Shown: positions 17,624 to 40,668 of the stretch, in pieces
How positions within the stretch are numbered: the stretch's first letter is position 1
How the letters are laid out: each line of letters starts with the position of its first letter
NCBI GenBank assembly: GCA_043427975.1
Contig: JBHWTK010000026.1
Location: 915-64,914 of the forward strand
Reading direction: 5' to 3'
DNA length: 64,000 nt
From: Chloroflexia bacterium
GTDB taxonomy: Bacteria; Chloroflexota; Chloroflexia; Thermomicrobiales; UBA6265
Notes under the pieces: generated by a model
The model's database searches: none
What the model was told of the DNA's origin: nothing
What the model saw: only the letters and a program-made list of their open reading frames with translations
Translations under genes and position numbers: made by a program

Positions 17624-17666
17624 CGACGTTACGAGATAACCGGTAACAACCCAACATCGGGCAGCC

Positions 17667-18107
17667 TTACGAATCGAAGTCGATTTGTGGTGCAGCACAC
17701 ACGGGGTTACCGGTTCCATAGAGGGTGAGATCGTATTTCAGTGTTTCGTCCGGATCGATCTCCAGGATCAGCTGGCTGTTGCTCACATTGCCGCCATCGA
17801 CACACTGCACCAGCAACCACGCGTTGGTAATGCGCTCGTCGCCGGCGTTTGTCACGGCCACGTTGACATCGATCTCCTTCTTGCCATCGACATCACGCGA
17901 TGCCAGCACGCTGAAGCCGCTGGCTTGCAACATTTGCCCCGATACGGCCTGGTTTGGAGCAGGATCGTCGCCGGGCACGTCGACCACGCCAAAGGCAATC
18001 AGGCCCATGGCGAGGGAAAACAGCAGTAACAAAACGGAAAACGCCGCCAGCACGACGATATAGCCGGGTAACGAGTTCCTGGGATCGGACGGTGGGTGGG
18101 CAGACAT
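17667..18107 (-). CDS. Membrane-anchored hypothetical protein
   Basis: ATG 18107 has GGAG 6 nt upstream. N-terminal TM helix YIVVLAAFSVLLLLFSLAMGLIAFGVV, then a ~100-aa beta-rich ectodomain with a Cys pair. Confidence 0.6.
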   Translation of the reverse strand: MSAHPPSDPRNSLPGYIVVLAAFSVLLLLFSLAMGLIAFGVVDVPGDDPAPNQAVSGQMLQASGFSVLASRDVDGKKEIDVNVAVTNAGDERITNAWLLVQCVDGGNVSNSQLILEIDPDETLKYDLTLYGTGNPVCAAPQIDFDS

Positions 18108-18245
18108 GAACAGCTCCGCAACGAATCGGTTGTCGCCACGTATTGTAGCCGCCTGCCGGGCACCCACAGCGGTATGGGCCATAGTAGGGTAAGAGAGCAT
18201 GGTAGGGTAGGGATATACCACTATTCCTCACCCGGAAGGAGACCC

Positions 18246-18665
18246 ATGGAATCCTGGATTGTAGCCGTGGCCCTCCTCGTGCTTGCACTGGTGATTGCCT
18301 ATGCCAACTTCCAGAACGCCAGGCCGTTTCGCATTGAAGCGCGCACGACGCTCCCACCATCGGAGGCACTGGACACAATGCAGGCCCGGCTGGCGCGCGA
18401 CGGCTGGAGCCTCGGTTACCGGGACACCACCCAGTTGACCATGAGTGCCGATCGCAACGCCGACCTCGGTTCCACCGCGGCGATCGGCTGTATTTCCGTC
18501 TGGTTCGGATTGCTATATGCGCTCTCATCCCGCCGAACGATTACGGTGAATGTGGAGGCCGTGAGACTGGCAGAAAGTACCACGATGATTGTCAACGGTA
18601 GCCGAAGCGGCAACGGCCTGCTGCGCTATATTGCCGAGCGGCTGCGGGAGCTACCAAAACCCTAA
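18246..18665 (+). CDS. Hypothetical membrane protein
   Basis: ATG 18246 is preceded by GGAAGGAGA. N-terminal TM helix (WIVAVALLVLALVIAY) and a second hydrophobic segment. Confidence 0.6.
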   Translation: MESWIVAVALLVLALVIAYANFQNARPFRIEARTTLPPSEALDTMQARLARDGWSLGYRDTTQLTMSADRNADLGSTAAIGCISVWFGLLYALSSRRTITVNVEAVRLAESTTMIVNGSRSGNGLLRYIAERLRELPKP

Positions 18666-18675
18666 AAAGGAAGGA

Positions 18676-19872
18676 CTACGGTTTCCCCGTATCGCTCTCC
18701 CGGAGGATCTTGTGCAGCGCCGCGAGGTCGGCGCGATGCTCTGCCAGGCGTGCCTCACGCACCTTGGCGGGAATGGCGATCAGCGCCTCCAGGTCGGATA
18801 TCGCCGCCTCACCCACGCCTAACGCCTGCCCGGACGAGATGACTCCCGCCTGCCAGGCTGCGGCCGCGGCCGCGATGTACGAGTTGAAGAACGCAATGCC
18901 CGGCTCGTGGTGCGCATCCGGCTGATTCAGCGCCGTCTCCTTCACATCATGGATAAACACCGCCCGTACAGCATCGCCCAATTCCTGCAGCATTTCCCTG
19001 CCGACCTGGACATCGCCCTGACCGCTATCGCCCACAAATACGATGCCGTATTCGGGGAAGAGTTGATGGTACCGCCGGATATTCTGCATTTTGCGCCGCG
19101 CCATGTAGTGGTGCGATCGTAACGCCAGCAGGCTCCCCAGCAGGATCGTGTGCTGTCGAATACCCGCCTTGCGCAGGGATCGGCGAGTAAACCGGGAAAC
19201 GATCCCGGCGATCAAGCCCGGACGTGCGCTGACGAAGGTAAGGTCACCGGATTCGCCGGAACCATCCGGGGCATGATCGAGCGCGTTGAAGAAGGCCAGC
19301 ACGCCGGGGTAGCGCGTTTTGCCGGGATACCGTTTATCGTGCAGCCGGGCGAACACGGTATCGTCGATGTCTGACAGCACCTTGATCTCATCCGTGGGAA
19401 CCTGGTGGGCGGCGATATGATCGATAATCTCCGCCCGGATGGCGGGGTCGTCGATGTCGGTGAACACCAGCCGTGGAAGGTCCCGGTAGGTGCCGGAGAG
19501 ATTAAGGACGTTACGAAGGCGCCGTAACTCTTCTCCTGTTGACCCGAGGATGATGTTCCGGATCGCCATCTCCAGCGGCCTGTGGGTACGACCTTTCTGG
19601 AGCGCCCACACGATATCTGCCCGGGTTTGGAGCGAGAGGTCATGCAGGCGATCGACAGTAAGCAACTTAAGCAGCTGATCGAGGTGGTCTGGCCCATTTA
19701 CCCTGTTATGGAAATTCCGTACCAGGATGTCGACGTCCAGCTCACGCAGGATGACATCCAGCGAGGCGTCCGGAGCTGCTTCCAGCAGGTCGAGGATACG
19801 CGCCTCGTCCTTACGGCCGGTCCAGCCCCGTTTGAGCGCCCTGATTTCCTTCACGATCTCCTGCAGGTTCAT
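18676..19872 (-). CDS. App1-like (DUF2183) DxDxT phosphatase with N-terminal helical domain
   Basis: DxDxT motif VLSDIDDTVF and the second HAD-like motif VFVGDSGQGD match bacterial DUF2183/App1 phosphatidate-phosphatase-like proteins. Confidence 0.65.
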   Translation of the reverse strand: MNLQEIVKEIRALKRGWTGRKDEARILDLLEAAPDASLDVILRELDVDILVRNFHNRVNGPDHLDQLLKLLTVDRLHDLSLQTRADIVWALQKGRTHRPLEMAIRNIILGSTGEELRRLRNVLNLSGTYRDLPRLVFTDIDDPAIRAEIIDHIAAHQVPTDEIKVLSDIDDTVFARLHDKRYPGKTRYPGVLAFFNALDHAPDGSGESGDLTFVSARPGLIAGIVSRFTRRSLRKAGIRQHTILLGSLLALRSHHYMARRKMQNIRRYHQLFPEYGIVFVGDSGQGDVQVGREMLQELGDAVRAVFIHDVKETALNQPDAHHEPGIAFFNSYIAAAAAAWQAGVISSGQALGVGEAAISDLEALIAIPAKVREARLAEHRADLAALHKILRESDTGKP

Positions 19873-20800
19873 AGGCTACAGCGGCCTTTCCACGAATAAT
19901 GAGTGCAGCGGGGTCTGCCGAAATCTCGACGCGGTGGACATCATGCCACACATCGCCGTCTACCTGGACCGCCGCCGGTGCTTCCGGAATAATCGTGACC
20001 TGCTCCACCAGATGATCGCCCACGCCCCGGACGGGCCGGGATGTGCCACGCACGCCTCGCCAGGCCAGGGGCAGCCACCCGACAACAGAACGTGGGGCAA
20101 CATGCAGCAGGTTCAGCTTGCCATCGTGCAGGCTGGCACCGGGTAAAACGGTGAGTCCACCGGGCACAACGGCACAGTTCCCAACCAGCACACTCCAGGC
20201 GGCGGTATGGGGCAGCGGTTCGCCGTCGATAACCACCTGCATGGGCAACGGTCGCCGCAGTAATTGCGGCAGTCCCGCGGCGAAATAGGCTGCCGCACCA
20301 ATGGTTCGCTTGAGCCGGGGCGAAACACCATGCAGGCTGAGGGCATCACGACCGACACCCACAACGACGAGGAACCGGCCCTCAACTGCGTCGCCCCTGG
20401 CATCGTGCAGGTGGACGATACCCGTATCAACCGGCGTATCCGTGCCCATGAGCGCAGTGCGAACCGCCTGGTCGAGCCGCTTGTCCCTGCCGATTGCGTT
20501 GAGGTGGAAGATGTTGGCCGTCCCGATGGGAATAATGCCCATCGCTACACCGGAGTGCGCCATCACGTTGGTAACCTGCCCAACCGTACCGTCCCCGCCT
20601 GCCACAATTACCAGGTCGGCACCGGCATCCAGTGCCTGCCGTGCCTGCGGCCCTCCGGGCGCTTCGATGGTGGTATGGAGCAGCGTTGGCGGGGGAGTAC
20701 CAAGGGCAGCGCAGTGCTGTTGCACCAGTTGCCACACACGCTCATGACGGGCGCGCGCCGGGTTGGCGATGCAATAGACCCGCCGGTTCCGCATTTCCAT
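19811..20800 (-). CDS. Diacylglycerol/lipid kinase family protein (YegS/DagK-like)
   Basis: Catalytic-domain motif LVIVAGGDGTVGQV. 329 aa. The 3' end overlaps the next gene by 62 nt. Confidence 0.87.
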   Translation of the reverse strand: MEMRNRRVYCIANPARARHERVWQLVQQHCAALGTPPPTLLHTTIEAPGGPQARQALDAGADLVIVAGGDGTVGQVTNVMAHSGVAMGIIPIGTANIFHLNAIGRDKRLDQAVRTALMGTDTPVDTGIVHLHDARGDAVEGRFLVVVGVGRDALSLHGVSPRLKRTIGAAAYFAAGLPQLLRRPLPMQVVIDGEPLPHTAAWSVLVGNCAVVPGGLTVLPGASLHDGKLNLLHVAPRSVVGWLPLAWRGVRGTSRPVRGVGDHLVEQVTIIPEAPAAVQVDGDVWHDVHRVEISADPAALIIRGKAAVAYEPAGDREGNQGAQTGLDRP

Positions 20801-20803
20801 GTC

Positions 20804-21403
20804 CTACCACTTTTCCCGGTGGAGCACGGTTTCGAGCGGACGTCGCCCGCGCTTCAGCGATCCACTTTTCTTGTCCGGCGCGGGATGGCCAATAAACACC
20901 ACCCCGATCGGCATGTGCTCGGCCGGAATGTGGAGCGCCTGCTGGAGTTCGGCAGGATCCTGCACGCCCACAAAGGCTGTGCCAAGCCCCTCGTCCACTG
21001 CAGCCAGCAAGACCAGCATCATCGCGGCACCGGCGTCGGTATGCCAGTAGGGGACAGGCCAGCCGATTTCCTCCTGGCCTTTCGCTTTTTTGTCCGGCTC
21101 GTTATAGCGCTGGTGGTAGATCTCCTCGCTGGTGGTGATGACGATATGCACTGGCGCACGGCTCATGAACGGTTCATGGCCCTGCCGTACATACCAGTGC
21201 TCGCCAGCGATCTCCGCAATGCGGCCGCGCATGTCGTCATCGGTCACTGCGACAAAGGCGACCCCCTGGCTATACCCGGCACTCGGGCCACGCCGGCCGG
21301 CATCGACAATGCGCTCGATTACCTCCCAGGATACCGGTTCCTCCGTAAAGTTCCGGATCATGCGGCGTTTCCGTACCAGTTCGTGGAATGGTGACTGGCT
21401 CAT
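20804..21403 (-). CDS. Nitroreductase family protein
   Basis: 199 aa. N-terminus RRMIRNFTEEPVSWEVIERIVDAGRRGPSAGYSQG is typical of the FMN nitroreductase fold. 4-nt overlap with the upstream VOC gene. Confidence 0.87.
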   Translation of the reverse strand: MSQSPFHELVRKRRMIRNFTEEPVSWEVIERIVDAGRRGPSAGYSQGVAFVAVTDDDMRGRIAEIAGEHWYVRQGHEPFMSRAPVHIVITTSEEIYHQRYNEPDKKAKGQEEIGWPVPYWHTDAGAAMMLVLLAAVDEGLGTAFVGVQDPAELQQALHIPAEHMPIGVVFIGHPAPDKKSGSLKRGRRPLETVLHREKW

Positions 21404-26597: not shown

Positions 26598-27346
26598 GGC
26601 GGGGAAATCGTGAAACCCGCTTCAGGGAGCGATGTACGGAGGGCCTGCGCGATGCGAACAGACTCAGGGGTATCGCCATGGACGCAGATGGTGTCGGCCT
26701 GGAGCCGGATCAGTTCACCGGTGACGGCCACGAACGGTTCACCACGAATCATCCCCACGGCGCGCTGGACAATCTCATCCACATCGTGAAGGACTGCGTT
26801 CGGCATCGAACGCGGGGCAAGCTGTCCATCGGCCAGGTAGGCACGGTCGGCAAAGACCTCGTGGGCAACCGAAACGCCTGCCTTCCGGGCCACGTCGGCA
26901 GTCACACTTCCCGGCTGGGCGTAGATCAGCGGCGTATCCATGGTGACCGCAATCGCTTCCACGATTGCGGTCGACATCCCCTCGTCCGTTGCTGCCATGG
27001 TGTACATGGCACCATGCGGCTTCACATGGTGCAGGGGCACCCCAACCGCCTTGCAGATCGCCTGCAATGCCCCGATTTGCACCATCACATCGGTGTATAG
27101 CTCCCGGTGGGAAAGGGTCATTGCCCGGCGGCCGAAGCCGACGAGGTCGGGAAAGCCCGGATGTGCCCCCACCGCCACCCCGGCCGCGGCGCAGGCCTCA
27201 ACCGTCACCAGCATGGTGCGGGGATCGCCGGCGTGGAACCCACAGGCGATATTGGCGCTGCTGATGCTGCCGATAAGCGCAGCGTCATCGGCCATGGTCC
27301 AGGCACCAAAGCTCTCGCCGAGATCACTGTTGATATCGATTCGCAT
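26594..27346 (-). CDS. pxpA: 5-oxoprolinase subunit PxpA (LamB/YcsF family)
   Basis: ATG 27346 gives MRIDINSDLGESFGAW, the canonical LamB/YcsF N-terminus. 250 aa. Confidence 0.9.
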   Translation of the reverse strand: MRIDINSDLGESFGAWTMADDAALIGSISSANIACGFHAGDPRTMLVTVEACAAAGVAVGAHPGFPDLVGFGRRAMTLSHRELYTDVMVQIGALQAICKAVGVPLHHVKPHGAMYTMAATDEGMSTAIVEAIAVTMDTPLIYAQPGSVTADVARKAGVSVAHEVFADRAYLADGQLAPRSMPNAVLHDVDEIVQRAVGMIRGEPFVAVTGELIRLQADTICVHGDTPESVRIAQALRTSLPEAGFTISPP

Positions 27347-27433
27347 GGGCGGTCTCCGGGTAAATGGTGTGGCAATGGTAAAATAGGGGAGTCGTACCGT
27401 CGACACCTTCCCCGCATTCATCCCGAGAACCAT

Positions 27434-28561
27434 ATGTCCGAACGTATCATGCCCCAACCTGTACCCGTTAACCCCATCTCCCGTCGCAAGCGCCTCACCG
27501 GTTTTTACGATTTATCCGTTGAAGAACTCGGCGAGAAACTGAACGACCTCGGCGCGCCCGCGTTCCGGGCCAAGCAGCTCTACAACTGGGGATATGAGCA
27601 TTTCGTAACTGGCTACAACGAGATGAAGAATATCCCGGCCAGCCTGCAACACCAGCTTGAGGAAGCGCTTCCGTTCGCCACGATGAAGCTAGTGGACCAG
27701 AAGGTCACCGATAACGGCGATACTTACAAGCTGCTCTACGAGACCTTCGATGGCCAGGTGGTCGAGACGGTGCTGATGCTCTATCCCGACCGCGCCACCG
27801 TTTGTGTGAGTTGCCAGGTTGGATGCGCCGTGGGCTGCGCCTTCTGCGCTACCGGCCTCGGCGGACTCACCCGCAGCCTCAGCGCCGGCGAAATCGTGCA
27901 GCAAACCGTGGATGCCGCCCGCATATCGCGCACGCTCGGCCGCAACCTCACCAACCTGGTGATGATGGGCATGGGCGAGCCGCTGCAGAACTATGCCGAG
28001 ACAATGAAGTTCGTGAGGATCATCCACGATCCCCGCGGGCTTAACTTTGGCGCCCGCCGCATCACCATCAGCACCTCTGGCATCGTGCCACGTATCGATG
28101 CCTTGGCGGAGGAACCGCTGCAGGTGAACCTCGCTGTGAGCCTTCACGCGCCCAATAACGAGCTGCGCAGCCGCCTGGTACCGATCAACGGTCGCTGGCC
28201 CGTAGAGGTGCTGCTGGAGGCCTGCGACCGCTATATCCAGAAGACCGGGCGGCGCATCAGTTTCGAATACGCGCTGATGAACGGCATCAACAACAGCGAT
28301 GAGACTGCCCATGAGCTTGGCGCGCTGCTCCGTGGTCGCCTGTGCCACGTGAACATCATCCCGTTCAATCCGGTGGAAGTACTGGATTTCGAGCGGCCGA
28401 CGGTGGAGATGATCGACCGGTTCGCCGGCATTGTTGCCAGCCATGGCGTGCCGACCACCGTGCGCTACAGCCGCGGGGTCGAAATCGACGCTGCCTGCGG
28501 CCAGCTTCGTGCCCGGTACGAAGCGACTCGTGGCAAGGCCGGAGTTGCTCCGCTCGCCTGA
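27434..28561 (+). CDS. rlmN: 23S rRNA/tRNA adenine-C2 methyltransferase RlmN (radical SAM)
   Basis: Radical-SAM cluster CQVGCAVGCAFCATG, plus MGMGEPL and a C-terminal CGQL motif. ATG 27434 lies within the longer track ORF. Confidence 0.93.
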   Translation: MSERIMPQPVPVNPISRRKRLTGFYDLSVEELGEKLNDLGAPAFRAKQLYNWGYEHFVTGYNEMKNIPASLQHQLEEALPFATMKLVDQKVTDNGDTYKLLYETFDGQVVETVLMLYPDRATVCVSCQVGCAVGCAFCATGLGGLTRSLSAGEIVQQTVDAARISRTLGRNLTNLVMMGMGEPLQNYAETMKFVRIIHDPRGLNFGARRITISTSGIVPRIDALAEEPLQVNLAVSLHAPNNELRSRLVPINGRWPVEVLLEACDRYIQKTGRRISFEYALMNGINNSDETAHELGALLRGRLCHVNIIPFNPVEVLDFERPTVEMIDRFAGIVASHGVPTTVRYSRGVEIDAACGQLRARYEATRGKAGVAPLA

Positions 28562-28605
28562 GCGATGCCCTGTGACCAGGTGTGACCGTGTGCCTTGGGT
28601 TCTCG

Positions 28606-28893
28606 CTTAATCAATTCATTTGGTATGTGGATATAGTCGTTAATTGTAGTGTCTGTGGATAGTGTGGATAACCGGCAAACAGCCCGCAACCATACGGAAA
28701 TTTCGATGTGGATAATCCGCAGGACTATCCCGCCCTTCCACTGGCATGCGTATCGACAGGTGTGACAATCCCCGCGGGCAGCACCGGAAACCTTGATAGC
28801 TTTTCAGCACTTCTTCAGGGGATCTTCACATATACGCTGCTGTTATCCCCAAATGGACCTGGTTATCCACATTTCTGCACAGAGTTATCCACA
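28606..28893. other. Candidate oriC: DnaA-box cluster with AT-rich element
   Basis: Perfect boxes: TGTGGATAA at 28663-71 and 28707-15; TTATCCACA at 28863-71 and 28885-93. One-mismatch boxes at 28626-34, 28654-62 and 28843-51. AT-rich 28606-28652. The gap is non-coding. Confidence 0.75.
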
Positions 28894-28988
28894 GCCCGTA
28901 GGATGATGGTGACAAGCGGTCACCGAGCCGACAGTCATCTGTCAAAGGAACCGGCCCGGGACCGGCGAGCAGATGCGCCCTGCCAGGA

Positions 28989-30191
28989 ATGCCGGGTATA
29001 GGAAAGGGAGTAGTTTTGCGTATCGTTCACGCCGGGGCAATCCGGCCGGTTTCATCGTTTGCCGATGTACAGGCATGGGTGCGCGAATCACTGGCGCCAG
29101 TTAATGTAGCCATCGGCAACGAGGAATCGGTTGGCGTCAGCGTGCGATTGTCCCAGGCGGCACTGGCGGATCCGATGCTTACCGCAGCCAACCTCAAGGC
29201 GGTCCTGGGCGAGTACGGCCTCTACCTGGCGGGGATCAGCGGTGTCGGTATCAGTGGCGGCGCGAAAGAACAGATCCACCATCCCGACTGGCGCACCGAG
29301 GATCGACTCTCGTTCATGTTTGCCGCCACCAACCTGCTGGCAGATGGGGCCGATCCTGACGGCCCCGAATTAGGGATAACTACCAACGCGTTCAGCCACC
29401 GCAACTGGTTGGATGTCGATTTCCCCGGTAACTGGGCAGCGCTCACGTTGAACCTGATGCGGGTGGTGCAACACCTGGCCACGATCCGCGAGCGTACCGG
29501 TATCACCATGCATATCGATCTTGAGGCCGAGCCCGGCAGCGTGCTGCGGGATACGGACGATATCATCCGCTTCTGGAACACGTGGTTGCTCGGGCGGGGC
29601 TCGGCGATGCTGAGCGACCGCATGCAGGTTACCGACGGCACCGCCGCCGATGTAGTGCAGCGCCATGTGCGCCTCGCGCTGGATACTGCCCATGCCGCTG
29701 TTGTGCGGGACGATGCTGCCACCAGCCTGGACCGATTTGCGGACGCCGGCGTTGGCATTGGCCGGTTGCAGGTCTCATCGGCGCTGGAGATCGACATTCC
29801 GGCGGATGATACCGGTCGGGTTGATGTCCGCGCCCAGCTTGCCCGGCTCCAAAGCGATCGGCTGTTGCAGCAGGTGGTTGCCACCCGCGATGGTGTGATT
29901 ACGGCGCGCCATGAGGATCTGCCGGACGCGCTCGCGGCGATCGATGGTGCTGTCGGCGAGACATGGCGGATTCACACCCACGCACCGGTCCTTGCCGACC
30001 GGTATGGTGTGTGGCGGAGCACGCGGGACGATGCCGCAGCCTGGCTGCGCGAAACCGCCGTCCGCGGCATGGATGTCGGGATGGTCGAGTTGCGCTCGGC
30101 CAATTGGGACGTGGTCCCCGCCGATGATCGAGCCTCGGTGGAAGAGATGGTCGCCCGCGAGGCCGAGTGGGTGCGGGGACCCATCTCATAA
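28989..30191 (+). CDS. TIM-barrel protein resembling EboE / xylose-isomerase-like family
   Basis: Pattern ...GVSVRLSQAA...LKAVLGEYGLYL...AKEQIHHPDWRTEDRL...ITTNAFSHRNW resembles EboE. An alternative TTG start at 29016 has a strong GGAAAGGGAG RBS. Confidence 0.5.
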   Translation: MPGIGKGVVLRIVHAGAIRPVSSFADVQAWVRESLAPVNVAIGNEESVGVSVRLSQAALADPMLTAANLKAVLGEYGLYLAGISGVGISGGAKEQIHHPDWRTEDRLSFMFAATNLLADGADPDGPELGITTNAFSHRNWLDVDFPGNWAALTLNLMRVVQHLATIRERTGITMHIDLEAEPGSVLRDTDDIIRFWNTWLLGRGSAMLSDRMQVTDGTAADVVQRHVRLALDTAHAAVVRDDAATSLDRFADAGVGIGRLQVSSALEIDIPADDTGRVDVRAQLARLQSDRLLQQVVATRDGVITARHEDLPDALAAIDGAVGETWRIHTHAPVLADRYGVWRSTRDDAAAWLRETAVRGMDVGMVELRSANWDVVPADDRASVEEMVAREAEWVRGPIS

Positions 30192-30562: not shown

Positions 30563-30733
30563 GTGTCCACCAAGCGTACATACCAGCCAAAGCGCATCAA
30601 GCGCATCCGCAAGTTCGGCTTCCTCGCCCGCATGTCCACCAAGGGTGGCCGGAACGTGCTGGCGGCTCGTCGTCGCAAGGGCCGACACGCCCTGACGGTG
30701 GCCGAGGAGAACAAGTTCACCCAGAACCGCTAG
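30563..30733 (+). CDS. rpmH: 50S ribosomal protein L34
   Basis: GTG start after [55 protein letters not shown]... Only 56 aa, so below the ORF-track size cutoff. Confidence 0.93.
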
Positions 30734-30789
30734 GCGGTTGCTGGGTGAATGCCGCGCCCTGTGCGTGCGGGTTCACCTTTTCGGATAAA

Positions 30790-30820
30790 CGCCGGGCCAG
30801 CTGCCCGGCGTTTGCTGTTT
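30790..30820 (+). terminator. Terminator/attenuator between rpmH and rnpA
   Basis: CGCCGGGC-CAGCT-GCCCGGCG followed by TTTGCTGTTT. Confidence 0.6.
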
Positions 30821-31280
30821 GTGGCAAGCGGAGCGGAATGTGGTAGATCGCCGGTATCGCCTCCGGGAAGAACACGATGTGAAACGAGTCCGGTCTCGTG
30901 GCCGGTCCGTGGCGCATGGTGCCCTGGTATTGCGATTTATGCCGAACAATACTGAGCCGCCGCAGAACCGCTACACCGTTATCGCGGGCAAGAAGTGCGG
31001 CAATGCTGTGCACCGGAACCGGTTGAAGCGCCTGGTACGTGAGGCATTGCGGGCATGGCACCCGATACTGCATCCGGGTCACGATGTGGCCATTGTCTGC
31101 CGCGGCGGTATTGAGGAAATGCCAGACCTTGCCACCGCGCAAACCACCTTGCAGCACATTTTGGAGCGCACGAACCTGGTGCAACAGGGCAGCACCCCGC
31201 CAACCATCGGCGCACCGGTTCGCACGAGCTGGAAGCAGAAACCGGCAGAAGCAACCGACGAGAATGAGGAAAACGGGTAA
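30819..31280 (+). CDS. rnpA: Ribonuclease P protein component
   Basis: [30 protein letters not shown]...[10 protein letters not shown] is the RnpA pattern. Start is TTG 30819 or GTG 30840. The stop overlaps the yidD ATG. Confidence 0.87.
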
Positions 31281-31489
31281 TGAAGCGGCCGGTGCTGGCG
31301 ATGATTCGCTTTTACAAGAAACGCATTTCCCCGGCGCTTCCGCCCTCGTGCCGCTACCAGCCAACGTGTTCGGAATACGCCTACGAGGCGGTTGAGAAGT
31401 ACGGTATCTTTAAGGGCGGTCGGCTGGCGGTGTGGCGCATCCTGCGCTGCAACCCGTTTGGCGGTACCGGATGGGATCCTGTTCCATAG
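31280..31489 (+). CDS. yidD: Membrane protein insertion efficiency factor YidD
   Basis: 69 aa. [32 protein letters not shown]...RILRCNPF is the canonical YidD sequence. Confidence 0.93.
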
Positions 31490-31611
31490 GGTTCCTGTTC
31501 CGCAAATCATCCCCAACTGTCGCGGCCACCACTCGTTGGCCAAACGCAGGCGAGCGACATCGCTGCGCGAATCGTCCGTAAGGGTTGCAGTAGTACCGGC
31601 GCACCAGCGCC

Positions 31612-32715
31612 ATGTTTTCGCCGCACTGCGGCAGGAGGGCACGTTACGTGCTGGATATCACCTCGGGCGTGAACACGATTGTTCCCGGAATTATCATCTG
31701 GGATCAGTACGTCGATTTCCTCAAATGGTTCCTGAACCTGCTGGCCGATACCTTCCGCAATGGTGGTATCGCGATCATCGTTTTCACCATCATCATCAAG
31801 ACCCTCATGCTGCCGCTCACCATCAAGTCCATTCGCTCGTCCAAGGCGATGCAGGAGCTGGCGCCCAAGATCAAGGAACTGCAGAAAAAGCATGGCAAGG
31901 ATCGCCAGGCGGCCTCGGCGGCGCAGATGCAGCTTTACCAGCAGTACGGCGTCAACCCGATGGCCGGCTGTTTGCCGATGCTGATCCAGCTGCCGATCTT
32001 CTTTGGCGTGTACCGGGCCATCCTGCCGCTCAGCGAGAGCGGTGAAGGACACTGGGCCGATGGTTTCCTCTGGCTCTCCGACCTTGGCCAGCCAGACAAG
32101 TTCTTCATCATGCCGGTACTGGCCGGTCTCTTCCAGTTCGTGCAGGCGCGCATGATGCGGCCGGCGAACCAGAAGGTGACTGATCCGCAGCAGAAGATGA
32201 TGAACACCATGATGAACTTCATGCCGCTCACCGTCATCCTCTTCGGCGCCAACTTCGCCTCGGGCGCGGTGCTGTACTGGGTGGCGCAGGCGATCTACTC
32301 GGTGGTGCAGCAGTGGCTCATCACCGGCTGGGGCGCCATGGCCGAGTGGTTCCCGTGGCTGCCGGAAATGCCCGAGCATCGTCGGCTGGGCTACGTCGCC
32401 CCCAAGACCGCCGAGGAACTGGCCGTACAGAGTGGCCAGCCGGTAAAGAAGGGCCGCTTTGCCGAGTTCATGGAGAAGCAGGCCGAGCTTGCCCGCGAAA
32501 AGCAGGAGCAGGCCCAGCGCCAGCGTGAGGAAGCTGCCGCTGCCATGAAATCCACCAGCCCCCAGGCCGCAGCGAAACCCACCAGGCGTAGCGATTACCA
32601 GAGCCGTGTGGATGCCGCATCCCGCTATCGGAAGGACGCAACCGACGCCGTTGTGGTGCAGTCCGGGCCTGCCGGGCAGGGTACGCCCCGCCGCAAGCGG
32701 AAGAAAAAGGCGTAA
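31612..32715 (+). CDS. yidC: Membrane protein insertase YidC (short, monoderm type)
   Basis: GIAIIVFTIIIKTLMLPLTIKSIRSSKAMQELAPKIKELQKK...GVNPMAGCLPMLIQLPIFFGVY core, with a Lys/Arg-rich C-terminal tail. Confidence 0.92.
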   Translation: MFSPHCGRRARYVLDITSGVNTIVPGIIIWDQYVDFLKWFLNLLADTFRNGGIAIIVFTIIIKTLMLPLTIKSIRSSKAMQELAPKIKELQKKHGKDRQAASAAQMQLYQQYGVNPMAGCLPMLIQLPIFFGVYRAILPLSESGEGHWADGFLWLSDLGQPDKFFIMPVLAGLFQFVQARMMRPANQKVTDPQQKMMNTMMNFMPLTVILFGANFASGAVLYWVAQAIYSVVQQWLITGWGAMAEWFPWLPEMPEHRRLGYVAPKTAEELAVQSGQPVKKGRFAEFMEKQAELAREKQEQAQRQREEAAAAMKSTSPQAAAKPTRRSDYQSRVDAASRYRKDATDAVVVQSGPAGQGTPRRKRKKKA

Positions 32716-32753
32716 ACTATCCGCATCTATACAACCGTTAAGGTGGGGTAAAC

Positions 32754-33593
32754 ATGAGCAAACGAACCAGCGTTGAGATACAGGCTGTCTCGGTTGAGGA
32801 TGCTGTACGCCTCGCACTGGAACAACTGGAACTCACCGAAGCCGATGTGGATATCGAAATCCTCTCCGAGGAAGGCCCCGGTGAGGATGCCGAGGCCCTA
32901 GTGCGTGTGACCGCCAAGGGCATGGCCAGCCAGCCAATTCCATCCCAGAAACCCGCCGATGCCGGAGACCGGGGCAGCCGGAACCGGCGCCGGGGCCGGG
33001 GCGGCCGTGGCGAGAACGGGAATCGCGATTGGCTTGGTGGCCGCACACCGGGGGATCGTCCCAGCCGCCGTGGCAAGCCACCGGTACGCGAGGGCCAGCC
33101 GCGTGATCGCGCGGATGCCGCCCACGAGGCCATTGCCAAGGAAATCCTCACGGACCTGCTCGAGCGCATGGGCGTGGAAGCCGACGTTATGGCGGTTGAT
33201 AACCCCAGCAGCGTGCCGCTGAGCACCGAAGACCCGCCGACCATTTTCCTCGATATCATGGGGCGCGACCTGGGCATGCTCATCGGCCGCCGTGGCGATC
33301 ACCTGGGCCAGCTGCAGTTCCTTATGAATACGCTGGTGAATCGCAAGCTCGAGGAATGGACCCGGGTGATCGTGGATGTGGAGGGCTACCGTGCCCGTCG
33401 CGAGGAATCGCTGGTAGGCCTGGCCGAGCGGGTTGCCCGCCAGGTGGAGCGCAGCGGTCGTCCCATTGTGCTGGAGCCGATGCCGGCCAACGAACGCCGC
33501 ATTATCCACCTCACCCTCAAGCAGTACCCCGGTGTCGCTACCCACAGTGAAGGTGAAGGCAATACCCGCCGGATTACGGTGGAGCCGGTATGA
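32754..33593 (+). CDS. jag: Jag/KhpB RNA-binding protein (Jag_N, KH, R3H)
   Basis: Jag_N N-terminus (VEDAVRLALEQLELTEADVDIEIL), Arg/Gly-rich linker, KH (GMLIGRRGDHLGQLQFL) and R3H (MPANERRIIHLTLK). Conserved position after yidC. Confidence 0.9.
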   Translation: MSKRTSVEIQAVSVEDAVRLALEQLELTEADVDIEILSEEGPGEDAEALVRVTAKGMASQPIPSQKPADAGDRGSRNRRRGRGGRGENGNRDWLGGRTPGDRPSRRGKPPVREGQPRDRADAAHEAIAKEILTDLLERMGVEADVMAVDNPSSVPLSTEDPPTIFLDIMGRDLGMLIGRRGDHLGQLQFLMNTLVNRKLEEWTRVIVDVEGYRARREESLVGLAERVARQVERSGRPIVLEPMPANERRIIHLTLKQYPGVATHSEGEGNTRRITVEPV

Positions 33594-34594
33594 CGGATGC
33601 AGGCAAACCGGGCCGCAAGCACGGCACGCGCGCGCCATTCCGTGGCCAGCAACTCCGATCTCCATTGCAGGGCATGCGCACGCCCGATTACCTGATTGTC
33701 GGCCATATTACTGCCGATTTGCTGGACGATGGCAGCGTGACCTTGGGCGGTACCGCGCTTTATAGCGGGCTGGCCGCAGCACATCTTGGCGCGAATGTCG
33801 CCATCCTCACACGCGGTCGTTTTGGCGAGAAGATCGCCGGAATGGATGTGCCAGGACTTGGCGAATACGCCGACCGCCTGCAGGTGATCGTGCAGGATGC
33901 CGATGTGCCGACGACGTTCACCAATCATTACCTTGGCACCAGCCGCACCCAGCAGATCAAACACTGGGCGGGTCCGATCGACCTGCGTGGCCTGCCGCCG
34001 CACTGGGGCAACGCCAAGATCGTGCACCTCGGCCCGGTGGCCGATGAGCTGGATCCGCGCCGGATTTCCGGCTTTACCACCGGGTTCCTTGGCGTTACGC
34101 CGCAAGGCTGGATGCGCGAATGGCCAAAGGATCGCGGTGGCCGCGTGAATCTTGTGCCGCTCCGCCTGCCGGTGGACCTGGTGAACCGGATCGATTCTGC
34201 GATTGTTTCCGATGAAGAGATCTTCAATGCCCGCGAGTTTATCGAGCGGGTGGGCGAGCGGCGCATGAGCGTGGTGACGCGCGGCCCCGAGGGCGCGAGT
34301 ATCTATCACAGCCTCCCGCGTGATGTGCAGGTGCAGCCGGGCCGGAAGGCCTTCCGTACAGTGGAAATTCCCGGTGTGCCTGTCAAGGTGAAGAGCCTCA
34401 CTGGCGCGGGCGATGTGTTTGCTGCTGCCTTCTTCATGAAGGCCTCCGAGCGCAACAGCAGCGCGCTGGAGGCTGGCCGCTATGCCAACGCCGTGGCCGC
34501 GCTCAGCCTGCGTGAGTTGGGCGCCGGTGTAGTGCCCGACAAACGCGAGGTTGATGAACTGCTGGCCCAGCTGAGGGCCGCAGACCAGCGCTAA
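33590..34594 (+). CDS. PfkB-family carbohydrate/nucleoside kinase
   Basis: C-terminal GAGDVFAAAF motif and an N-terminal GG dipeptide region. ATGA overlap with jag; the start may instead be M29 (33674). Confidence 0.83.
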   Translation: MTDAGKPGRKHGTRAPFRGQQLRSPLQGMRTPDYLIVGHITADLLDDGSVTLGGTALYSGLAAAHLGANVAILTRGRFGEKIAGMDVPGLGEYADRLQVIVQDADVPTTFTNHYLGTSRTQQIKHWAGPIDLRGLPPHWGNAKIVHLGPVADELDPRRISGFTTGFLGVTPQGWMREWPKDRGGRVNLVPLRLPVDLVNRIDSAIVSDEEIFNAREFIERVGERRMSVVTRGPEGASIYHSLPRDVQVQPGRKAFRTVEIPGVPVKVKSLTGAGDVFAAAFFMKASERNSSALEAGRYANAVAALSLRELGAGVVPDKREVDELLAQLRAADQR

Positions 34595-35001
34595 CCTGGC
34601 AGGATCGCCGTCACCCGTATTTCTACCTTCATCGCTGGCTCTCCCAACGCTTCTACCCCCAGCAGGGTCCAGATGGGGGCGTGATGGGGCATATAGTGCC
34701 GGAACATGGCGGTCATGGTTGCGTTGACTTCCGCCTGATGGCCCTCAAGGCCCACGTGCCACGAGTTCACCTCAATCACGTGGTTCCAGTTGGCCCCGGC
34801 GGTCGCGAGGGTACGTCCCACGTTGGCGAATGCCAGCCGGATTTGCTCGTCCACCGTTTCCGGGAATTCCATTGCGTCATTCCACCCGCCCTGGCCGGAG
34901 ATATCGACACGATTGCCAACCCTGACCGCCTGGGAGTAATGGTGCCGTTCCAGTTGAACGTCGCCGTATCCCGGCGTCACGAAATACTCTGGCTCGCTCA
35001 T
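34591..35001 (-). CDS. RidA/YjgF family protein
   Basis: ATG 35001 (MSEPEYFVTPGY...) gives 136 aa. SQAVRVGNRVDISGQGGW and a C-terminal EIRVTA pattern. Confidence 0.85.
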   Translation of the reverse strand: MSEPEYFVTPGYGDVQLERHHYSQAVRVGNRVDISGQGGWNDAMEFPETVDEQIRLAFANVGRTLATAGANWNHVIEVNSWHVGLEGHQAEVNATMTAMFRHYMPHHAPIWTLLGVEALGEPAMKVEIRVTAILPG

Positions 35002-35082
35002 ATGTCCTCCTGTTTTCGACTTTCCGACAGGGACATTGTATCGAGCGGGCACAATGCCAGGCCCCTCCATCGAAAAGCGGGT

Positions 35083-35118
35083 ATGGAAAACGGCTGGCGC
35101 GTGCCAGCCGTTTTCCAT
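35083..35118. promoter_or_regulatory. Perfect 16-bp inverted repeat in a divergent promoter region
   Basis: ATGGAAAACGGCTGGC-GCGT-GCCAGCCGTTTTCCAT, between the ridA start (35001) and the STAND-LuxR gene. No flanking T-tract typical of a terminator. Confidence 0.4.
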
Positions 35119-35300
35119 CTCTCCTGCTCGAGGCGTCCGTTGTGTCTGGGGGCCACCGGGATAACGTCCTCTGGCATCAAGCAATATTGGGTTGGCCATT
35201 CGTTGCCATGGCCGCAGGCATCGGTGCCAGCACACCGGTGCCCGTCTGTTTGATACACGCGAGGTCTATCAACCTCTTTCAAACTATCCACCAGGCGGGT

Positions 35301-37598
35301 ATGGTTGCCTATGGCCCCATGGGATCAATTAGCGGTCCGGAATCGGGTACAGTGGCCCTATGCCTGTATGTCGTGGAGTGCTCACTGGTGAACAATCCGT
35401 CCCGATATGCCCCATATCACCAGCCACTTGTTGGCCGCACGATCGAGCGGGATACCCTGCTTGCCTGGTTGCGGGAAGAAGGTCCTGTAGTGGCCAGCAT
35501 TGTTGGCCCCGGCGGTGTCGGTAAAACGCACCTGGCACATGTGGTGGCGCGCCACCTCGCCACAGAACTCGATGCCGACCTGACGGTGCTGCGGCTGGAT
35601 AACCAGACCCCGGAATCATTGCCGGGATACCTCGCCATGCGGCTGGGTGCTCCGCTGGCCAGCGACGAACCGGATGATATCCCTCAGGAGTTGGTGGAAC
35701 GGCGGCTGGTGCTGCTGGTGGATAACTGTGAAACCGTGCTGCCGGATATCTCGCTGACCGTCTCGCGCCTTGCCATGCTCCCTGGTGTGCGCATCATCGC
35801 CACCAGCCAGGTACCCCTGAACACCTCTACCGAGCGCGTGTTGTGGCTGCAACCACTCGGGGTGGAGTCAGATCTCGAAAGCGACGCCGTGCGCCTGTTT
35901 CTCCATCATGCCCGTATCGCCCGGCCCGATTTTGCGATTGATGAAGAGAACGCCGGGCTGCTGAACGCGATTCTCCATGAGTTGGATGGCTTGCCGCTGG
36001 CGATTGTGCTGGCCGCAGCGCATGTTCGGCACTTGCCGCTTGACGCCCTGCTGGAACAACTGCGCGAGGATATTACCCTGCTTAATGGCGGCCCGGGCGA
36101 TATCCCGGCCCGGCACCGGTCGTTGCGATCCGCTTTCGCCACCAGCCTCAATGGCCTGTCGCACCACCAACACGATCTGCTGCTGATGCTCTCGTGGTAC
36201 CGGTCGGGGTTTGGCGCAGGCGATGTGCAGGAACTGCTGCCGGATACCAGCCGCGCTGCCGCATGGACGTTGCTGGAGCAGTTGGCGGATCGCAGCCTGA
36301 TCCGCCATGTAGCAGGTAACCGGTTTGGCATGCTGCACATTATCCAGGCGATGGCGCACCAACGCGTCATCACCCGCCCGGAACTGGCGGAACACGCGCG
36401 TTCGGTTCATCGCACCATGCTGGCGCGCGTGGCCGCAGAGGCCAAAACGCACATGCACGGCCCGGCAGAGCTGGCCTGGCGGCGCAGGCTTCACGACCTG
36501 CTGCCCGATGTGATGGCTACCTGGGACGATCCTGATCCCGCCATTGCGTTACGCCTGATAGCGGATATGCAGTGGTTCTGGTACACCGGCGCGATGTATG
36601 CCCCGGTATTGCCACGTATGGAAGAGGTGGTTACGCGTGGACAGGGACACGACGCTGCGGCCGGAGCGCACGTCACGCTTGGCTGGATGTGGCACCGGCT
36701 GGGTGAAATAGATACCGCGCAACGGCACTTTGAAGAGGCCATACAGCTTCGTTCGCCCGACGATCCGGTAAGGCAACTCGCAACTGTCGGCCTGGCATAT
36801 TGCCTTACATTCGCCGGCGAGAACATCGAGCGTGGCATCGGGATGTTCGACGACGTCATCGCGGCGGCGTCCCGGCAGGATGGCGTGAGCCATGAACTGG
36901 TAGCGGCGTGGTTCGGCAAGGGCGTGATCCTGGTCTTCCACGGAGATATGGAACTTGCCCAGCCCTGTTTCCTCCGGGCGCTGGAACTTGCTGGCCAGGT
37001 CGACGATTTCCATGCCCTGGGCATGTGCCTGATGCACCTCGCCATGATCAATCTTGCGGAAGGTGATGGTGAATCGGCCCTGTGGAAGCTGCAGGAAGCG
37101 ATCCCACAAATCCTTTCCGGCGGCGACCTCGCCACAGTCGCGCTGGCGCTGGATATCCTGGCCTCGACGCTGGCGGCAATACACCAGCCCGAGCGCGCCG
37201 CGCTGGCACTGGCGCACGGTGAGCGGTTGCGCAATCGCCTGGGCGTGGTGCGCTCGCCGGTAGAGCGGCAGGCGATCGATGAGTTGCGCGCCACCCTGCC
37301 GCCCTTGCCGCAGCTTGCCGCCAATACCGCCACCGGGCAGATTTTGGAGTTGCTGGATACGCGTTCAGGAAAAGAGGCTGAGGCCCCGGCAGCAGCCATG
37401 CTCTCGTCCCGCGAGATGGATGTGCTGCAACTCACGGCCCAGGGATACCGGGGTGCGGAAATCGCCGAACGGCTGTTCATTAGCCCCAATACGGTGAAGC
37501 GGCACATGGCCAATATCCGCAGCAAGCTGGGGGTGAAATCGCAGGCAGCTGCCATCGCCACCATCCGGGAGATGTCTGGCAGTGAAATCCGCAGGTAA
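35301..37598 (+). CDS. STAND-type (AAA/NB-ARC + TPR-like) LuxR-family transcriptional regulator
   Basis: Walker A GPGGVGKTHLA, long helical-repeat middle, C-terminal LuxR HTH LSSREMDVLQLTAQGYRGAEIAERLFISPNTVKRHMANIRSKLG. The maximal ORF starts at 35142; the start is uncertain. Confidence 0.85.
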   Translation: MVAYGPMGSISGPESGTVALCLYVVECSLVNNPSRYAPYHQPLVGRTIERDTLLAWLREEGPVVASIVGPGGVGKTHLAHVVARHLATELDADLTVLRLDNQTPESLPGYLAMRLGAPLASDEPDDIPQELVERRLVLLVDNCETVLPDISLTVSRLAMLPGVRIIATSQVPLNTSTERVLWLQPLGVESDLESDAVRLFLHHARIARPDFAIDEENAGLLNAILHELDGLPLAIVLAAAHVRHLPLDALLEQLREDITLLNGGPGDIPARHRSLRSAFATSLNGLSHHQHDLLLMLSWYRSGFGAGDVQELLPDTSRAAAWTLLEQLADRSLIRHVAGNRFGMLHIIQAMAHQRVITRPELAEHARSVHRTMLARVAAEAKTHMHGPAELAWRRRLHDLLPDVMATWDDPDPAIALRLIADMQWFWYTGAMYAPVLPRMEEVVTRGQGHDAAAGAHVTLGWMWHRLGEIDTAQRHFEEAIQLRSPDDPVRQLATVGLAYCLTFAGENIERGIGMFDDVIAAASRQDGVSHELVAAWFGKGVILVFHGDMELAQPCFLRALELAGQVDDFHALGMCLMHLAMINLAEGDGESALWKLQEAIPQILSGGDLATVALALDILASTLAAIHQPERAALALAHGERLRNRLGVVRSPVERQAIDELRATLPPLPQLAANTATGQILELLDTRSGKEAEAPAAAMLSSREMDVLQLTAQGYRGAEIAERLFISPNTVKRHMANIRSKLGVKSQAAAIATIREMSGSEIRR

Positions 37599-38505
37599 TA
37601 CCCCGTTTGGGGCCGACGAAACGATCCGCGAGCTTATTGCCTGGGGCCGAGACCAGCCCGATATCCGGGCCATGCTGCTCACCAGCACCCGCGCCACCGG
37701 TGCGCCTACGGATACATGGTCCGATTACGACGTGATCCTCATCTGCACCGATGTCACGGTGCGATACGAGGATCGAACGTGGCTGGGCGCCTTTGGCGAG
37801 GTTGTCATCGACTGGTGGGACCCGCTGCAGCCCGATGCTGATACCGGCCTGCCTTCCACCGGCAACGTCGTGTATTACACCGGCACCCGCAAGATCGATT
37901 TCACCCTCTGGCCCACCGGCGTCGCCCCGGTACTGACGGCGGGTCTTACCAATGAACTCGATGCCGGCTATGCCGTACTGCTGGATAAAGACGACCTCAC
38001 CGTCGGCTGGTCCGCCCCAACTGGACAGGCGTATGTTATCGCGTTGCCCGATTGCAAGCGCTACCGCGAGGCCGTGAACGATTTCTTTATCGGCGTGCCG
38101 TATGTGGCAACGGCGATGATCCGCGGCGAGATCCTGCCCGGCAAATGGGTGCTGGATTATGACATGCGCTACGAGTACCTGCTGCCCCTGCTGAAGTGGT
38201 ATGCCGTGGTGTTGCACGGCGATGTGCGCATCGGCGAAACGGGCAAGGGGTTGTCGGCGCTGTTGCCGCGCGCAGTGTGGGATCGGCTGGAGCCTACCTA
38301 CGCTGGCATGGATGTAGCGGCCAACATCGCGGCTATGGACGCGATGATCGTGCTCTTTCGCGGCATCGCGCAGGTGGTGGGTCTGGGAATCGGCTGTGGG
38401 TATCCGCACGACCTCCACGACCGTGTGGTGGGGCACACCAATACACTGCTGGCAGGTGCGGGGTTGCCTCAGCTGTCCAGGAGTGCCAGTTCCTCATCTA
38501 CATAG
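37582..38505 (+). CDS. Aminoglycoside 6-adenylyltransferase (ANT(6)/AadK) family protein
   Basis: IRAMLLTSTRA...SDYDVILI...KIDFTLWP...VLLDKD...FFIGVPYVATAMIRGEILPGKW parallels the AadK layout. 17-nt overlap with the LuxR gene. Confidence 0.78.
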   Translation: MKSAGNTPFGADETIRELIAWGRDQPDIRAMLLTSTRATGAPTDTWSDYDVILICTDVTVRYEDRTWLGAFGEVVIDWWDPLQPDADTGLPSTGNVVYYTGTRKIDFTLWPTGVAPVLTAGLTNELDAGYAVLLDKDDLTVGWSAPTGQAYVIALPDCKRYREAVNDFFIGVPYVATAMIRGEILPGKWVLDYDMRYEYLLPLLKWYAVVLHGDVRIGETGKGLSALLPRAVWDRLEPTYAGMDVAANIAAMDAMIVLFRGIAQVVGLGIGCGYPHDLHDRVVGHTNTLLAGAGLPQLSRSASSSST

Positions 38506-39170
38506 ATGTCCGGCTCGTCGTTCTCCTTGAGCTGGAGCAGGATCTCCCGGGCCGCTTCCGGCCGGCCGGTTCGCCGCAGGATATGGGCAACGCTCCATTG
38601 CGCAATATGGATCTGCTCGGCGGTACCGTGCTCGATAAACCACTCCTCGGCGGCCAGGAACTCTGCCAGTGCTTCTTCGGGCAGGTAGTTTTCCACCAGT
38701 GTCCACGCCCAGTTGTTGCGCAGGCTCCCCTCCCACCGTTGCACGCGGGGATCGGGCGATCCCTGTGCCAGGCGCATGCCCCAGTTGTACCAGTAGCGGG
38801 CGTTGCTCGGGTTCACGATGGCCAGCATGTGCAGGGCATCAACCGTGAGGTAGGGATCGGCATCGAGCTGGACTGCCTCCTGGAAGTAGGGGCGCGCCCG
38901 GAAGGCATCACCAGCGGAGTTGTACAGGCGGCCCCGTTCGAGCGCAATGCGTTGCTGCACGATCGGGTCGTTGTTGGCGATGGTGTTCAGGAGCGCGTGG
39001 CCCTGCTGGAATCGCCCCTGCATGCCGGCGGCACGCGCAATTTGGGTGGTGAGTTCGTCGGCAGCGTGGCCTTCGGCCGCCGCCTCGGCCTCTCGCAACC
39101 GCGGTTCGGCGGCTTCGGCGTCGAAATCGCCCCAGAGTTGATCCAGCAGGTTGCCGTCGAGGTGGGTCAT
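38469..39170 (-). CDS. TPR-like helical repeat protein
   Basis: ATG 39170 (MTHLDGNLLDQLWGDF...). Repeated A/L/Y-rich helical hairpins. Convergent 37-nt overlap with the ANT(6) gene. Confidence 0.6.
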   Translation of the reverse strand: MTHLDGNLLDQLWGDFDAEAAEPRLREAEAAAEGHAADELTTQIARAAGMQGRFQQGHALLNTIANNDPIVQQRIALERGRLYNSAGDAFRARPYFQEAVQLDADPYLTVDALHMLAIVNPSNARYWYNWGMRLAQGSPDPRVQRWEGSLRNNWAWTLVENYLPEEALAEFLAAEEWFIEHGTAEQIHIAQWSVAHILRRTGRPEAAREILLQLKENDEPDIYVDEELALLDS

Positions 39171-39291
39171 GGTTGTTGCCTTTGGGTACCGGCGTGCAAC
39201 CCTGGGCGCGCGCGGTGAATTACTATCAGGACATGATGTACTGCCCGAATGATAGCGAACACCGGAATACCCCCTGTTATGGCGTGCCCGC

Positions 39292-40302: not shown

Positions 40303-40317
40303 GTTTCACAGGGGAAT

Positions 40318-40435: not shown

Positions 40436-40459
40436 ATTTGGGATTATTCCACGCGGGAA

Positions 40460-40582: not shown

Positions 40583-40607
40583 AGTTGGGCGTTATCCCAC
40601 ACGGCAA

Positions 40608-40659: not shown

Positions 40660-40668
40660 ACAGGGAGA

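Follow-up and report, generated by a model that had tools for sequence, protein, structure and literature searches.

Where does chromosome replication begin in an uncultured Thermomicrobiales bacterium (Chloroflexota; Chloroflexia; UBA6265) that carries a dense group of DnaA boxes in a stretch of DNA without dnaA? The question is raised by 64,000 nucleotides of contig JBHWTK010000026.1 (GenBank assembly GCA_043427975.1, positions 915 to 64,914), here called the window, for which an earlier note, made from the letters alone, had proposed a chromosomal origin (oriC) with seven DnaA boxes in the gap after rlmN. Here, we report an analysis of this gap (28562-29015) and of its counterparts in related lineages, and conclude that it is probably the chromosomal oriC of this bacterium, one-sided and of the Escherichia coli type. 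The proposal is supported by a box cluster unique in the window, an AT-rich tract, an architecture common to ten lineages, GC-skew change-points, a reversal of skew in orthologous genes, a change of gene strand, and parS sites.

The gap is 454 bp long and lies between rlmN and an EboE-like gene, whose TTG start at 29016 is also called in an independent assembly. The earlier note had ended it at 28988 (28562-28988, 427 bp); it is non-coding as described there, and its right border shifts to the TTG. Its description as the largest clean non-coding gap of the window had to be dropped, because two gaps free of open reading frames (ORFs), at 34595-35141 and 37599-38195, are longer. A 97-aa ORF within it (28708-29001) was rejected as a gene, since its conservation consists of 9-mer islands with non-triplet indels. 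An Rfam scan of 28300-29300 returned no RNA family, a promoter scan of the gap returned no sigma-70-like promoter, and a terminator scan of the gap returned one weak terminator-like hairpin on the minus strand.

The 64 kb contain four perfect TTATCCACA boxes (0.22 expected; four or more in 0 of 100 shuffles), and every one lies inside the gap, two reading TGTGGATAA on the plus strand (28663-28671 and 28707-28715) and two reading TTATCCACA (28863-28871 and 28885-28893). With up to one mismatch allowed, the box scan found 18 sites in the window, 7 of which fall within the gap, and recovered the one-mismatch boxes already noted at 28626, 28654, and 28843. These four perfect and three one-mismatch boxes are packed into 268 bp, and the weighted 400-bp box score reaches 23.5 at the gap, with 4.0 at the next-best place and a window median of 0.5. 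The left arm, on the minus strand, consists of box 1 (28626-28634; TGTGGATAT on the plus strand, one mismatch), the abutting tandem boxes 2 and 3 (28654-28671; TGTGGATAG-TGTGGATAA, with a core invariant in A2, one of two alignments of the element, A1 and A2), and box 4 (28707-28715; perfect, with a GGA core invariant in A2). The right arm, on the plus strand (28843-28893), consists of boxes 5 (28843-28851; TTATCCCCA), 6 (28863-28871), and 7 (28885-28893), spaced 20 and 22 bp apart. Four left boxes therefore oppose three right boxes around a center of 127 bp, as the earlier note had it at about 130 bp. When the tandem-box 18-mer was used in a metagenome scan, at least 19 of 120 loci had a dnaA signature in their short flanks, as is expected for an oriC-type motif; the hits came mainly from unrelated phyla, with one true homologue of the element (locus L070).

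The AT-rich tract at 28602-28649 (48 nt), our candidate for the DNA-unwinding element (DUE), directly flanks the box array. It is 67% AT in a window of 61% GC, and only 0.02% of the 48-nt windows in the 64 kb are equally AT-rich, which bears out the AT-richness noted before; the equivalent tract is 54 to 71% AT across ten lineages whose loci are 34 to 43% AT. In the subclade of the window, the tract holds box 1. Its box-proximal TAG (the 3'-GAT-5' DnaA-trio consensus) and the 4-nt spacer TGTC (together 28647-28653) are invariant in the ten lineages. This edge can be compared with the basal unwinding system (BUS), for which the published criteria are a DnaA box with two mismatches at most, preferably in a tandem pair with the better box distal, and a spacer of up to 16 bp with a mode of 13 bp (PMC8287927); the BUS program also asks for at least three consecutive DnaA-trios NAN, with the consensus 3'-GAT-5' (PMC8287927). 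The TGTGGATAG-TGTGGATAA pair at 28654-28671 is tandem, has its better box distal, and is invariant in relatives, and the distance from the better box to the first trio is 9 + 4 = 13 bp in 10 of 10 lineages. The trios themselves run GAT then GTT in the window and in L007 (one consecutive), GAT-AAT-GAA in L015 and L008 (three), and to one or two elsewhere, the first GAT being invariant. A loose run of three NAN after box 7 on the minus strand, tried as right-arm trios, was rejected as neither conserved nor AT-rich.

Relatives of its YidC put the window among uncultured Chloroflexota of the Thermomicrobiales/Sphaerobacteraceae-like kind. Ten lineages were compared (RlmN identity, 75 to 100%), the related loci being labeled L with a number. 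The element occurs with the same flanking genes in L007, L008, L009, L015, and L024/L025 and with other neighbors in L016, L070, L147/L148, and L150. Metagenome-assembled genomes with the element include GCA_046128665.1 (contig JBJSWG010012738.1), GCA_039809955.1 (JBDHWB010000003.1), HKST-UBA75 (JAGQGU010000007.1), and UBA6265 (DJVD01000077.1). A common layout is seen in the ten: the 48-nt AT tract, TAG, the 4-nt spacer, and the abutting pair (TGTGGATAG, then a TGTGGATAA-like box), followed by the right arm 170 to 182 bp farther on (212 bp to the single scored box in L015). In 8 of 10 lineages, the right arm has three boxes with at most one mismatch, spaced 20 and then 21 to 22 bp. In A1 and A2, the boxes and a few other blocks stand out as islands of identity, and the spacer sequence has diverged. 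L007, L015, and L008 keep box 1, L009 and L024 have a degenerate form of it, and L016, L070, L147, and L150 lack it; in these last four, the AT tract runs directly into the TAG, spacer, and box pair. The neighbor on the AT side is rlmN, FemAB, or Q_salvage, and on the other side eboE, an eboD-led ebo cluster, or unrelated genes. Since the neighbors vary and the element stays intact, it is conserved for itself and not as the promoter of one gene. The locus L016 (JBBJOX010000001.1, 33.5 kb; 8831-21050) has the element inverted, 5.4 kb downstream of pfkB, with the rpmH-pfkB operon pointing at it. The order of rlmN, rpmH, and mnmE is highly fluid across Thermomicrobiales (L023, 8010-11185; L022, 1-1082; L147, 5844-7238); L023 has no box cluster, and its rpmH and rlmN are divergent, close to a PemK toxin and a serine recombinase.

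For each locus, the best negative-to-positive GC-skew change-point was located and given a block-permutation p value, using the local sequence and not whole replicons. In seven of eight loci, this change-point lies within 0.3 to 1.1 kb of the cluster (offsets of −389 bp in the window, −300 in L009, −391 in L147, +896 in L150, −1129 in L015, −1008 in L007, and −588 in L024). The block-permutation p value is at most 0.023 in six of these seven loci, the window (p = 0.41) being the other. For the three types of gene arrangement, the probabilities of such proximity are 0.013, 0.044, and 0.099, which combine by Fisher's method to about 0.003. Because L147 and L150 have other genes beside the cluster, the skew switch is not the signal of one shared gene. 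Within the window, the replication term of the skew at third codon positions (GC3 skew), with coding bias removed, is −0.025 to the left and +0.025 to the right of the gap (bootstrap one-sided p of about 0.03), and a 10-kb skew contrast larger than that at the gap occurs at only 2 of 176 sliding positions.

Orthologous genes in different orientations give the same answer. On its coding strand, the rpmH-pfkB block (30563-34594) has a GC skew that is +0.023 in the window and +0.014 to +0.029 in four lineages with the cluster upstream; it is −0.042 in L016, where the block is inverted and all three genes tested (yidC, jag, and pfkB) are negative. The coding-strand GC3 skew of rlmN is −0.20 in the window, as expected of a gene read against forks that leave the element, and lies between −0.16 and −0.29 in five of six window-type lineages, with −0.06 in L024. 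The skew of these orthologues thus indicates that the G-rich strand follows the direction away from the cluster and not the genes. A flip of gene orientation at the gap had also been claimed. Its right side stands (25 plus, 4 minus), as does the difference from the left (15 plus, 18 minus; Fisher p = 0.001); the flip is one-sided, and the count of minus-strand genes nearest on the left comes down from 10 of 11 to about 8 of 11. The GC3-based gene caller mis-assigns strands in higher-GC loci, and gene counts from the related loci were discarded.

The surroundings of the gap are those of an ori domain. The origin-linked cluster rpmH-rnpA-yidD-yidC-jag (30563-33593, plus strand; followed by a PfkB kinase gene, also plus) starts 1575 bp past 28988, which agrees with the 1.6 kb given before, and its genes are confirmed by Pfam and NCBIfam; it is co-directional with forks running rightward from the element. 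Two identical near-consensus parS sites (TGTTTCATGTGAAACA, one mismatch; 4843-4858 and 4929-4944) lie 86 bp apart in the ndk-dcd intergenic region, 24 kb from the gap, with about 0.0015 sites expected at up to one mismatch, and mark the ori domain; no parA or parB was found in the window. Among relatives, mnmE occurs within 10 kb of the element, and it is 3 to 9 kb from rlmN in L022, L147, and L150. In L016, L070, L147, and L150, rlmN itself lies within 0.5 to 4 kb on the AT side.

The origin would sit away from dnaA, as had been supposed. Searches for the dnaA signatures GxGLGKTHL and RDHTT in six frames of the window gave no dnaA, and no DnaA or DnaN domain was found among the ORFs scanned, so the dnaA-free DNA around the gap extends at least 28 kb leftward and at least 35 kb rightward. 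Relatives with that much flank have no dnaA or dnaN within 10 kb on either side, and tblastn of an acidobacterial DnaA against plasmids gave no Thermomicrobiales record. A GKTHL match in the window was rejected as DnaA, as it belongs to an 818-aa LuxR-family/TPR/AAA_16 regulator (35142-37598). The P-loop of this regulator (GPGGVGKTHLA) superficially resembles the DnaA Walker A motif, and homologues occur near the element in L019, L023, and L077. Beyond the window, dnaA may have been separated from the origin by rearrangement or may never have been adjacent to it in this order. In only 342 of 568 chromosomes (about 60%) does oriC adjoin dnaA and also coincide with the switch of skew (PMC2275245), and the location of oriC "is not strictly conserved" (PMC4285127). 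In Thermomicrobium roseum, dnaA, dnaN, gyrA/B, spo0J, and gidA are dispersed, and the origin was set by GC skew (PMC2615216). With origins unlinked to dnaA so common, one away from dnaA is not unusual.

The closest known counterpart in form is E. coli oriC, which is described (PMC13643167) as consisting of a DUE and of DnaA subcomplexes termed Left and Right. Examination of the real E. coli sequence showed the DUE followed by R1 at 358 (minus) and R4 at 538 (plus), 180 bp apart, between mnmG and mioC; likewise, the gap has an AT-rich end, then TGTGGATAA boxes, then opposed TTATCCACA boxes about 180 bp on. Both are compact (about 250 to 300 bp), are distant from dnaA, and have two opposed arrays on one side of the DUE. 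They differ in that the gap has only one GATC (28821), hence no signature of Dam/SeqA-type sequestration, in that no 13-mer repeats were seen in it, and in the flanking genes; it also has seven near-consensus boxes (up to one mismatch) to the four of E. coli oriC. With the Bacillus subtilis-type BUS (PMC8287927), the element shares the tandem pair, the better box placed distally, a 4-nt and often G/C-rich spacer, a 3'-GAT-5' trio, and AT-rich DNA; it differs in a short or interrupted trio run (one consecutive NAN in the window, two to three in relatives), in the extra DnaA box within the tract in the subclade of the window, and in its place outside a dnaA-dnaN gap. Of the ordinary DnaA-box type, the element joins a BUS-like unwinding edge to a body of two arrays as in E. 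coli.

T. roseum belongs to the same order and, as noted above, has its marker genes dispersed (PMC2615216). Its origin was placed near dnaX, and the window has no dnaX-type P-loop; a link between the two origins through dnaX was dropped, as the window has no dnaX. The DoriC-derived BUS entry for T. roseum (supplement, PMC8287927) lies near 1.78 Mb, with TGTGGAAAA-type boxes, and is unrelated in sequence to the element. For the T. roseum chromosome itself (NC_011959), base 1 as set by GC skew near dnaX and the oriC of the BUS table (at about 1,777,700 of 2,006,217 bp) lie about 11% of the chromosome apart.

Several observations weigh against an origin at this place. The window's own skew change-point, though at the gap, is not significant in amplitude (permutation p = 0.41; Mann-Whitney p = 0.14), most cluster-bearing loci share genes, so that their skew results are partly dependent, and the left flank as a whole has no real minus-strand majority. 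In L016, the skew does not change sign across the cluster within the sequence at hand (2.1 kb on the rlmN side), the GC3 skew of rlmN is +0.13, and the rpmH operon is aimed at the cluster; either the origin of that lineage lies slightly farther on or the region was recently rearranged. The strict BUS trio rule holds in 2 of 10 lineages and fails in the window. More distant Thermomicrobiales (YidC identity of 55 to 62% or RlmN identity of 71 to 73%) have no cluster near rpmH or rlmN, which makes the position specific to the subclade. Only 64 kb of the replicon is in view, so a second, denser cluster may lie elsewhere, for instance beside dnaA. Finally, DnaA-box clusters that are not origins occur near the B. 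subtilis origin, one of them in thdF-jag (PMC2533591).

That last point leads to the best-surviving alternative, in which the cluster would titrate or regulate DnaA in the manner of datA, DARS, or the B. subtilis sites, close to a true oriC placed elsewhere and perhaps beside dnaA. In B. subtilis, stable DnaA complexes form at eight intergenic regions, and the non-origin clusters are "generally located near oriC" (PMC2533591); like the element, these clusters and E. coli datA are dense, intergenic, origin-proximal, and conserved groups of near-consensus boxes (PMC2533591). The failed trio rule, the missing flip in L016, and the partial view of the replicon, with dnaA not found, can be counted for this alternative as well. 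Against it, 7 of 8 loci have a skew change-point of origin polarity coincident with the cluster, and the skew of orthologues tracks their orientation to it. The adjoining tract is the most AT-rich of the window and comes with the invariant TAG, the spacer, and the tandem-pair geometry; the known non-origin clusters are without an adjoining unwinding element or skew switch, and both are present here. No other cluster was found in the 64 kb, and a titration locus needs neither phased, opposed arms nor an unwinding tract. We therefore regard titration as unlikely and an oriC as the preferred reading of the gap.

The element might instead be one part of a bipartite origin, or one of two origins, with a second cluster elsewhere, such as one flanking dnaA. 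Bipartite origins are described for B. subtilis and Helicobacter pylori (PMC8287927; PMC13643167), dual origins are predicted for some lineages in a preprint (bioRxiv 10.1101/2025.08.05.668638), and the replicon is seen in part. Both opposed arms and the AT tract, however, fit within about 300 bp, much as the whole of E. coli oriC does, the 28 to 35 kb of flanking DNA hold no second cluster, and in bipartite origins nothing but dnaA stands between the halves, a gene absent here. A split or doubled origin is accordingly quite improbable, and we infer that the gap acts as the sole origin.

A role as a DnaA-controlled promoter region, for eboE, the rpmH operon, or both, can be pictured on the model of Pseudomonas aeruginosa, where DnaA controls gidAB-parAB from oriCII. 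DnaA is described as a transcription factor at box clusters (PMC13438810; PMC2533591), and in the window, L147, and L150, ebo-type genes immediately follow the cluster. Yet the gap has no sigma-70-like promoter, the skew switch would go unexplained, and the downstream genes are different or inverted in L016 and L070, where the element is intact. Seven boxes, two phased arms, and an AT tract also go far beyond the needs of a promoter operator, and this role is very improbable as an account of the element. It is scarcely credible that the boxes cluster by chance or that the gap is the origin of a plasmid or a secondary replicon: the T. roseum megaplasmid of 0.9 Mb (PMC2615216) and a contig of only 73 kb can be cited for the latter, but chance is ruled out by the shuffles and the conservation, genes on the contig include rpmH, rnpA, yidC, rlmN, ndk, and one for a class A penicillin-binding protein (PBP), alongside chromosomal-type parS, and a comparison with 72,556 plasmids, which addressed the plasmid alternative, found no DNA similarity and only distant YidC matches.

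If the gap is the oriC, initiation may proceed as follows. DnaA would first occupy the high-affinity boxes, namely the tandem pair at 28654-28671, box 4, and boxes 6 and 7. ATP-DnaA would then fill the opposed arrays, boxes 1 to 4 on the left and boxes 5 to 7 on the right, the latter about two helical turns apart. The left oligomer, starting at the tandem pair, would cross the 4-nt spacer, reach the TAG trio, and continue into 28602-28649, the tract that would melt and receive the helicase. Bidirectional forks would leave the element, rightward along eboE and the rpmH-jag operon and leftward against rlmN.

The gene on the AT side, rlmN (27434-28561, plus strand, 375 aa; TIGR00048, E = 8e-122), is transcribed toward the element, directly flanks its AT side in the window-type lineages, and has an exact 375-aa match in an independent assembly. 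The longest rlmN ORF (484 aa, from GTG 27107) overlaps the opposite-strand pxpA over 27107-27457; independent assemblies place the true start at ATG 27434. Further left of rlmN are pxpBC and pxpA, on the minus strand. The gene on the other side (29016-30191, plus strand) encodes an EboE-like TIM-barrel protein (NF035939, E = 8e-61, below the curated cut-off) and points away from the element. In L150 (14549-20720), the same position is taken by a fuller ebo-type cluster (DHQ-synthase-like, TatD, AP_endonuc_2/EboE-like, UbiA, and phosphodiesterase genes), which suggests that the lone EboE-like gene of the window reflects gene loss or rearrangement in its lineage. Farther to the right, 38196-46109 may be a remnant of a mobile element or prophage, with a D12-class N6-adenine DNA methyltransferase (39292-40302), an IS200-like Y1 transposase domain (40408-41208), and a terminase-like gene (44667-46109, minus strand); the class A PBP gene (41847-44471) lies in its midst. 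Three adjacent paralogues with DUF4352/DUF5067 domains (46797-49650) form a tandem family.

Interleaved with the DnaA boxes is a second class of motif, GTCACA-type repeats and palindromes, which also occurs in the L007-L009, L015, L016, L024, L070, L147, and L150 regions. The gap has five copies of GTGAC where 0.61 would be expected (p = 4e-4), and enrichment of this motif is seen in seven of seven orthologous regions tested. The direct repeat TGTGACC-agg-TGTGACC at 28571-28587 (10-bp period; reverse complement, GGTCACAcctGGTCACA) is a possible site for a second origin-binding protein. A conserved TCCACTGGC block (28737-28745; conserved in A1 and A2) is possibly a low-affinity DnaA site. The central conserved block, GTGTGACAATCCCC (28760-28773), has GTGACA columns invariant in A2 and a TGACAA core in all ten lineages (L147 and L150 read GTTGACAATCCCC); this TGACAATCCCC block is kept in every lineage seen. 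Its TTGACA-like letters were rejected as a promoter −35 element, as there is no −10 element at 16 to 18 bp. To the right of box 7 are two palindromes, GGTGACaagcgGTCACC (28908-28924; GGTGAC/GTCACC) and GACAGtcatCTGTC (28930-28943), with columns conserved in A1 and A2 (GTGAC..GTCA and GACAG..TGTC).

These motifs resemble the MtrA boxes of Mycobacterium tuberculosis oriC (PMC4285127) in that GTCACA-type motifs lie between DnaA boxes and in that one is a direct repeat of 10-bp period (GGTCACAcctGGTCACAggg, the reverse strand of 28566-28590). They differ in belonging to another phylum and in that the right-hand copies here are palindromes and not direct repeats. No MtrA-like regulator was identified in the window, and a response regulator nearby in relatives has a receiver domain only. 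As a lead, then, the element may be a compact and self-contained origin cassette, rigid inside and with its neighbors reshuffled, that has a second, lineage-specific layer of control; this is a tentative suggestion that we hold to be more doubtful than not. The reshuffling is visible as a recurrent breakpoint at the right edge of the element and in its absence near rlmN and rpmH in the distant Thermomicrobiales. In such a layer, an origin-specific regulator (a response regulator like MtrA, for instance) would recognize the 28571-28587 repeat, the TGACAATCCCC block, and the 28908-28943 palindromes, and if so, control of initiation by response regulators would extend to Chloroflexota.

The novelty lies in this particular element and in its alignment across an uncultured subclade; the general understanding of origins is unchanged by it. 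The sole published origin of the order, that of T. roseum, was set by skew alone and conflicts with the database prediction, and the marker-gene approach fails in this order; with the gap, an uncultured lineage of Thermomicrobiales gains a specific oriC proposal that can be put to the test. The alignment of ten lineages shows which positions are constrained, namely the tandem pair, the TAG trio, the spacing, and the GTGAC-type motifs. A defined origin would make it possible to orient contigs of metagenome-assembled genomes, to estimate growth from read-depth ratios, and to compare origin architecture in a deep-branching phylum.

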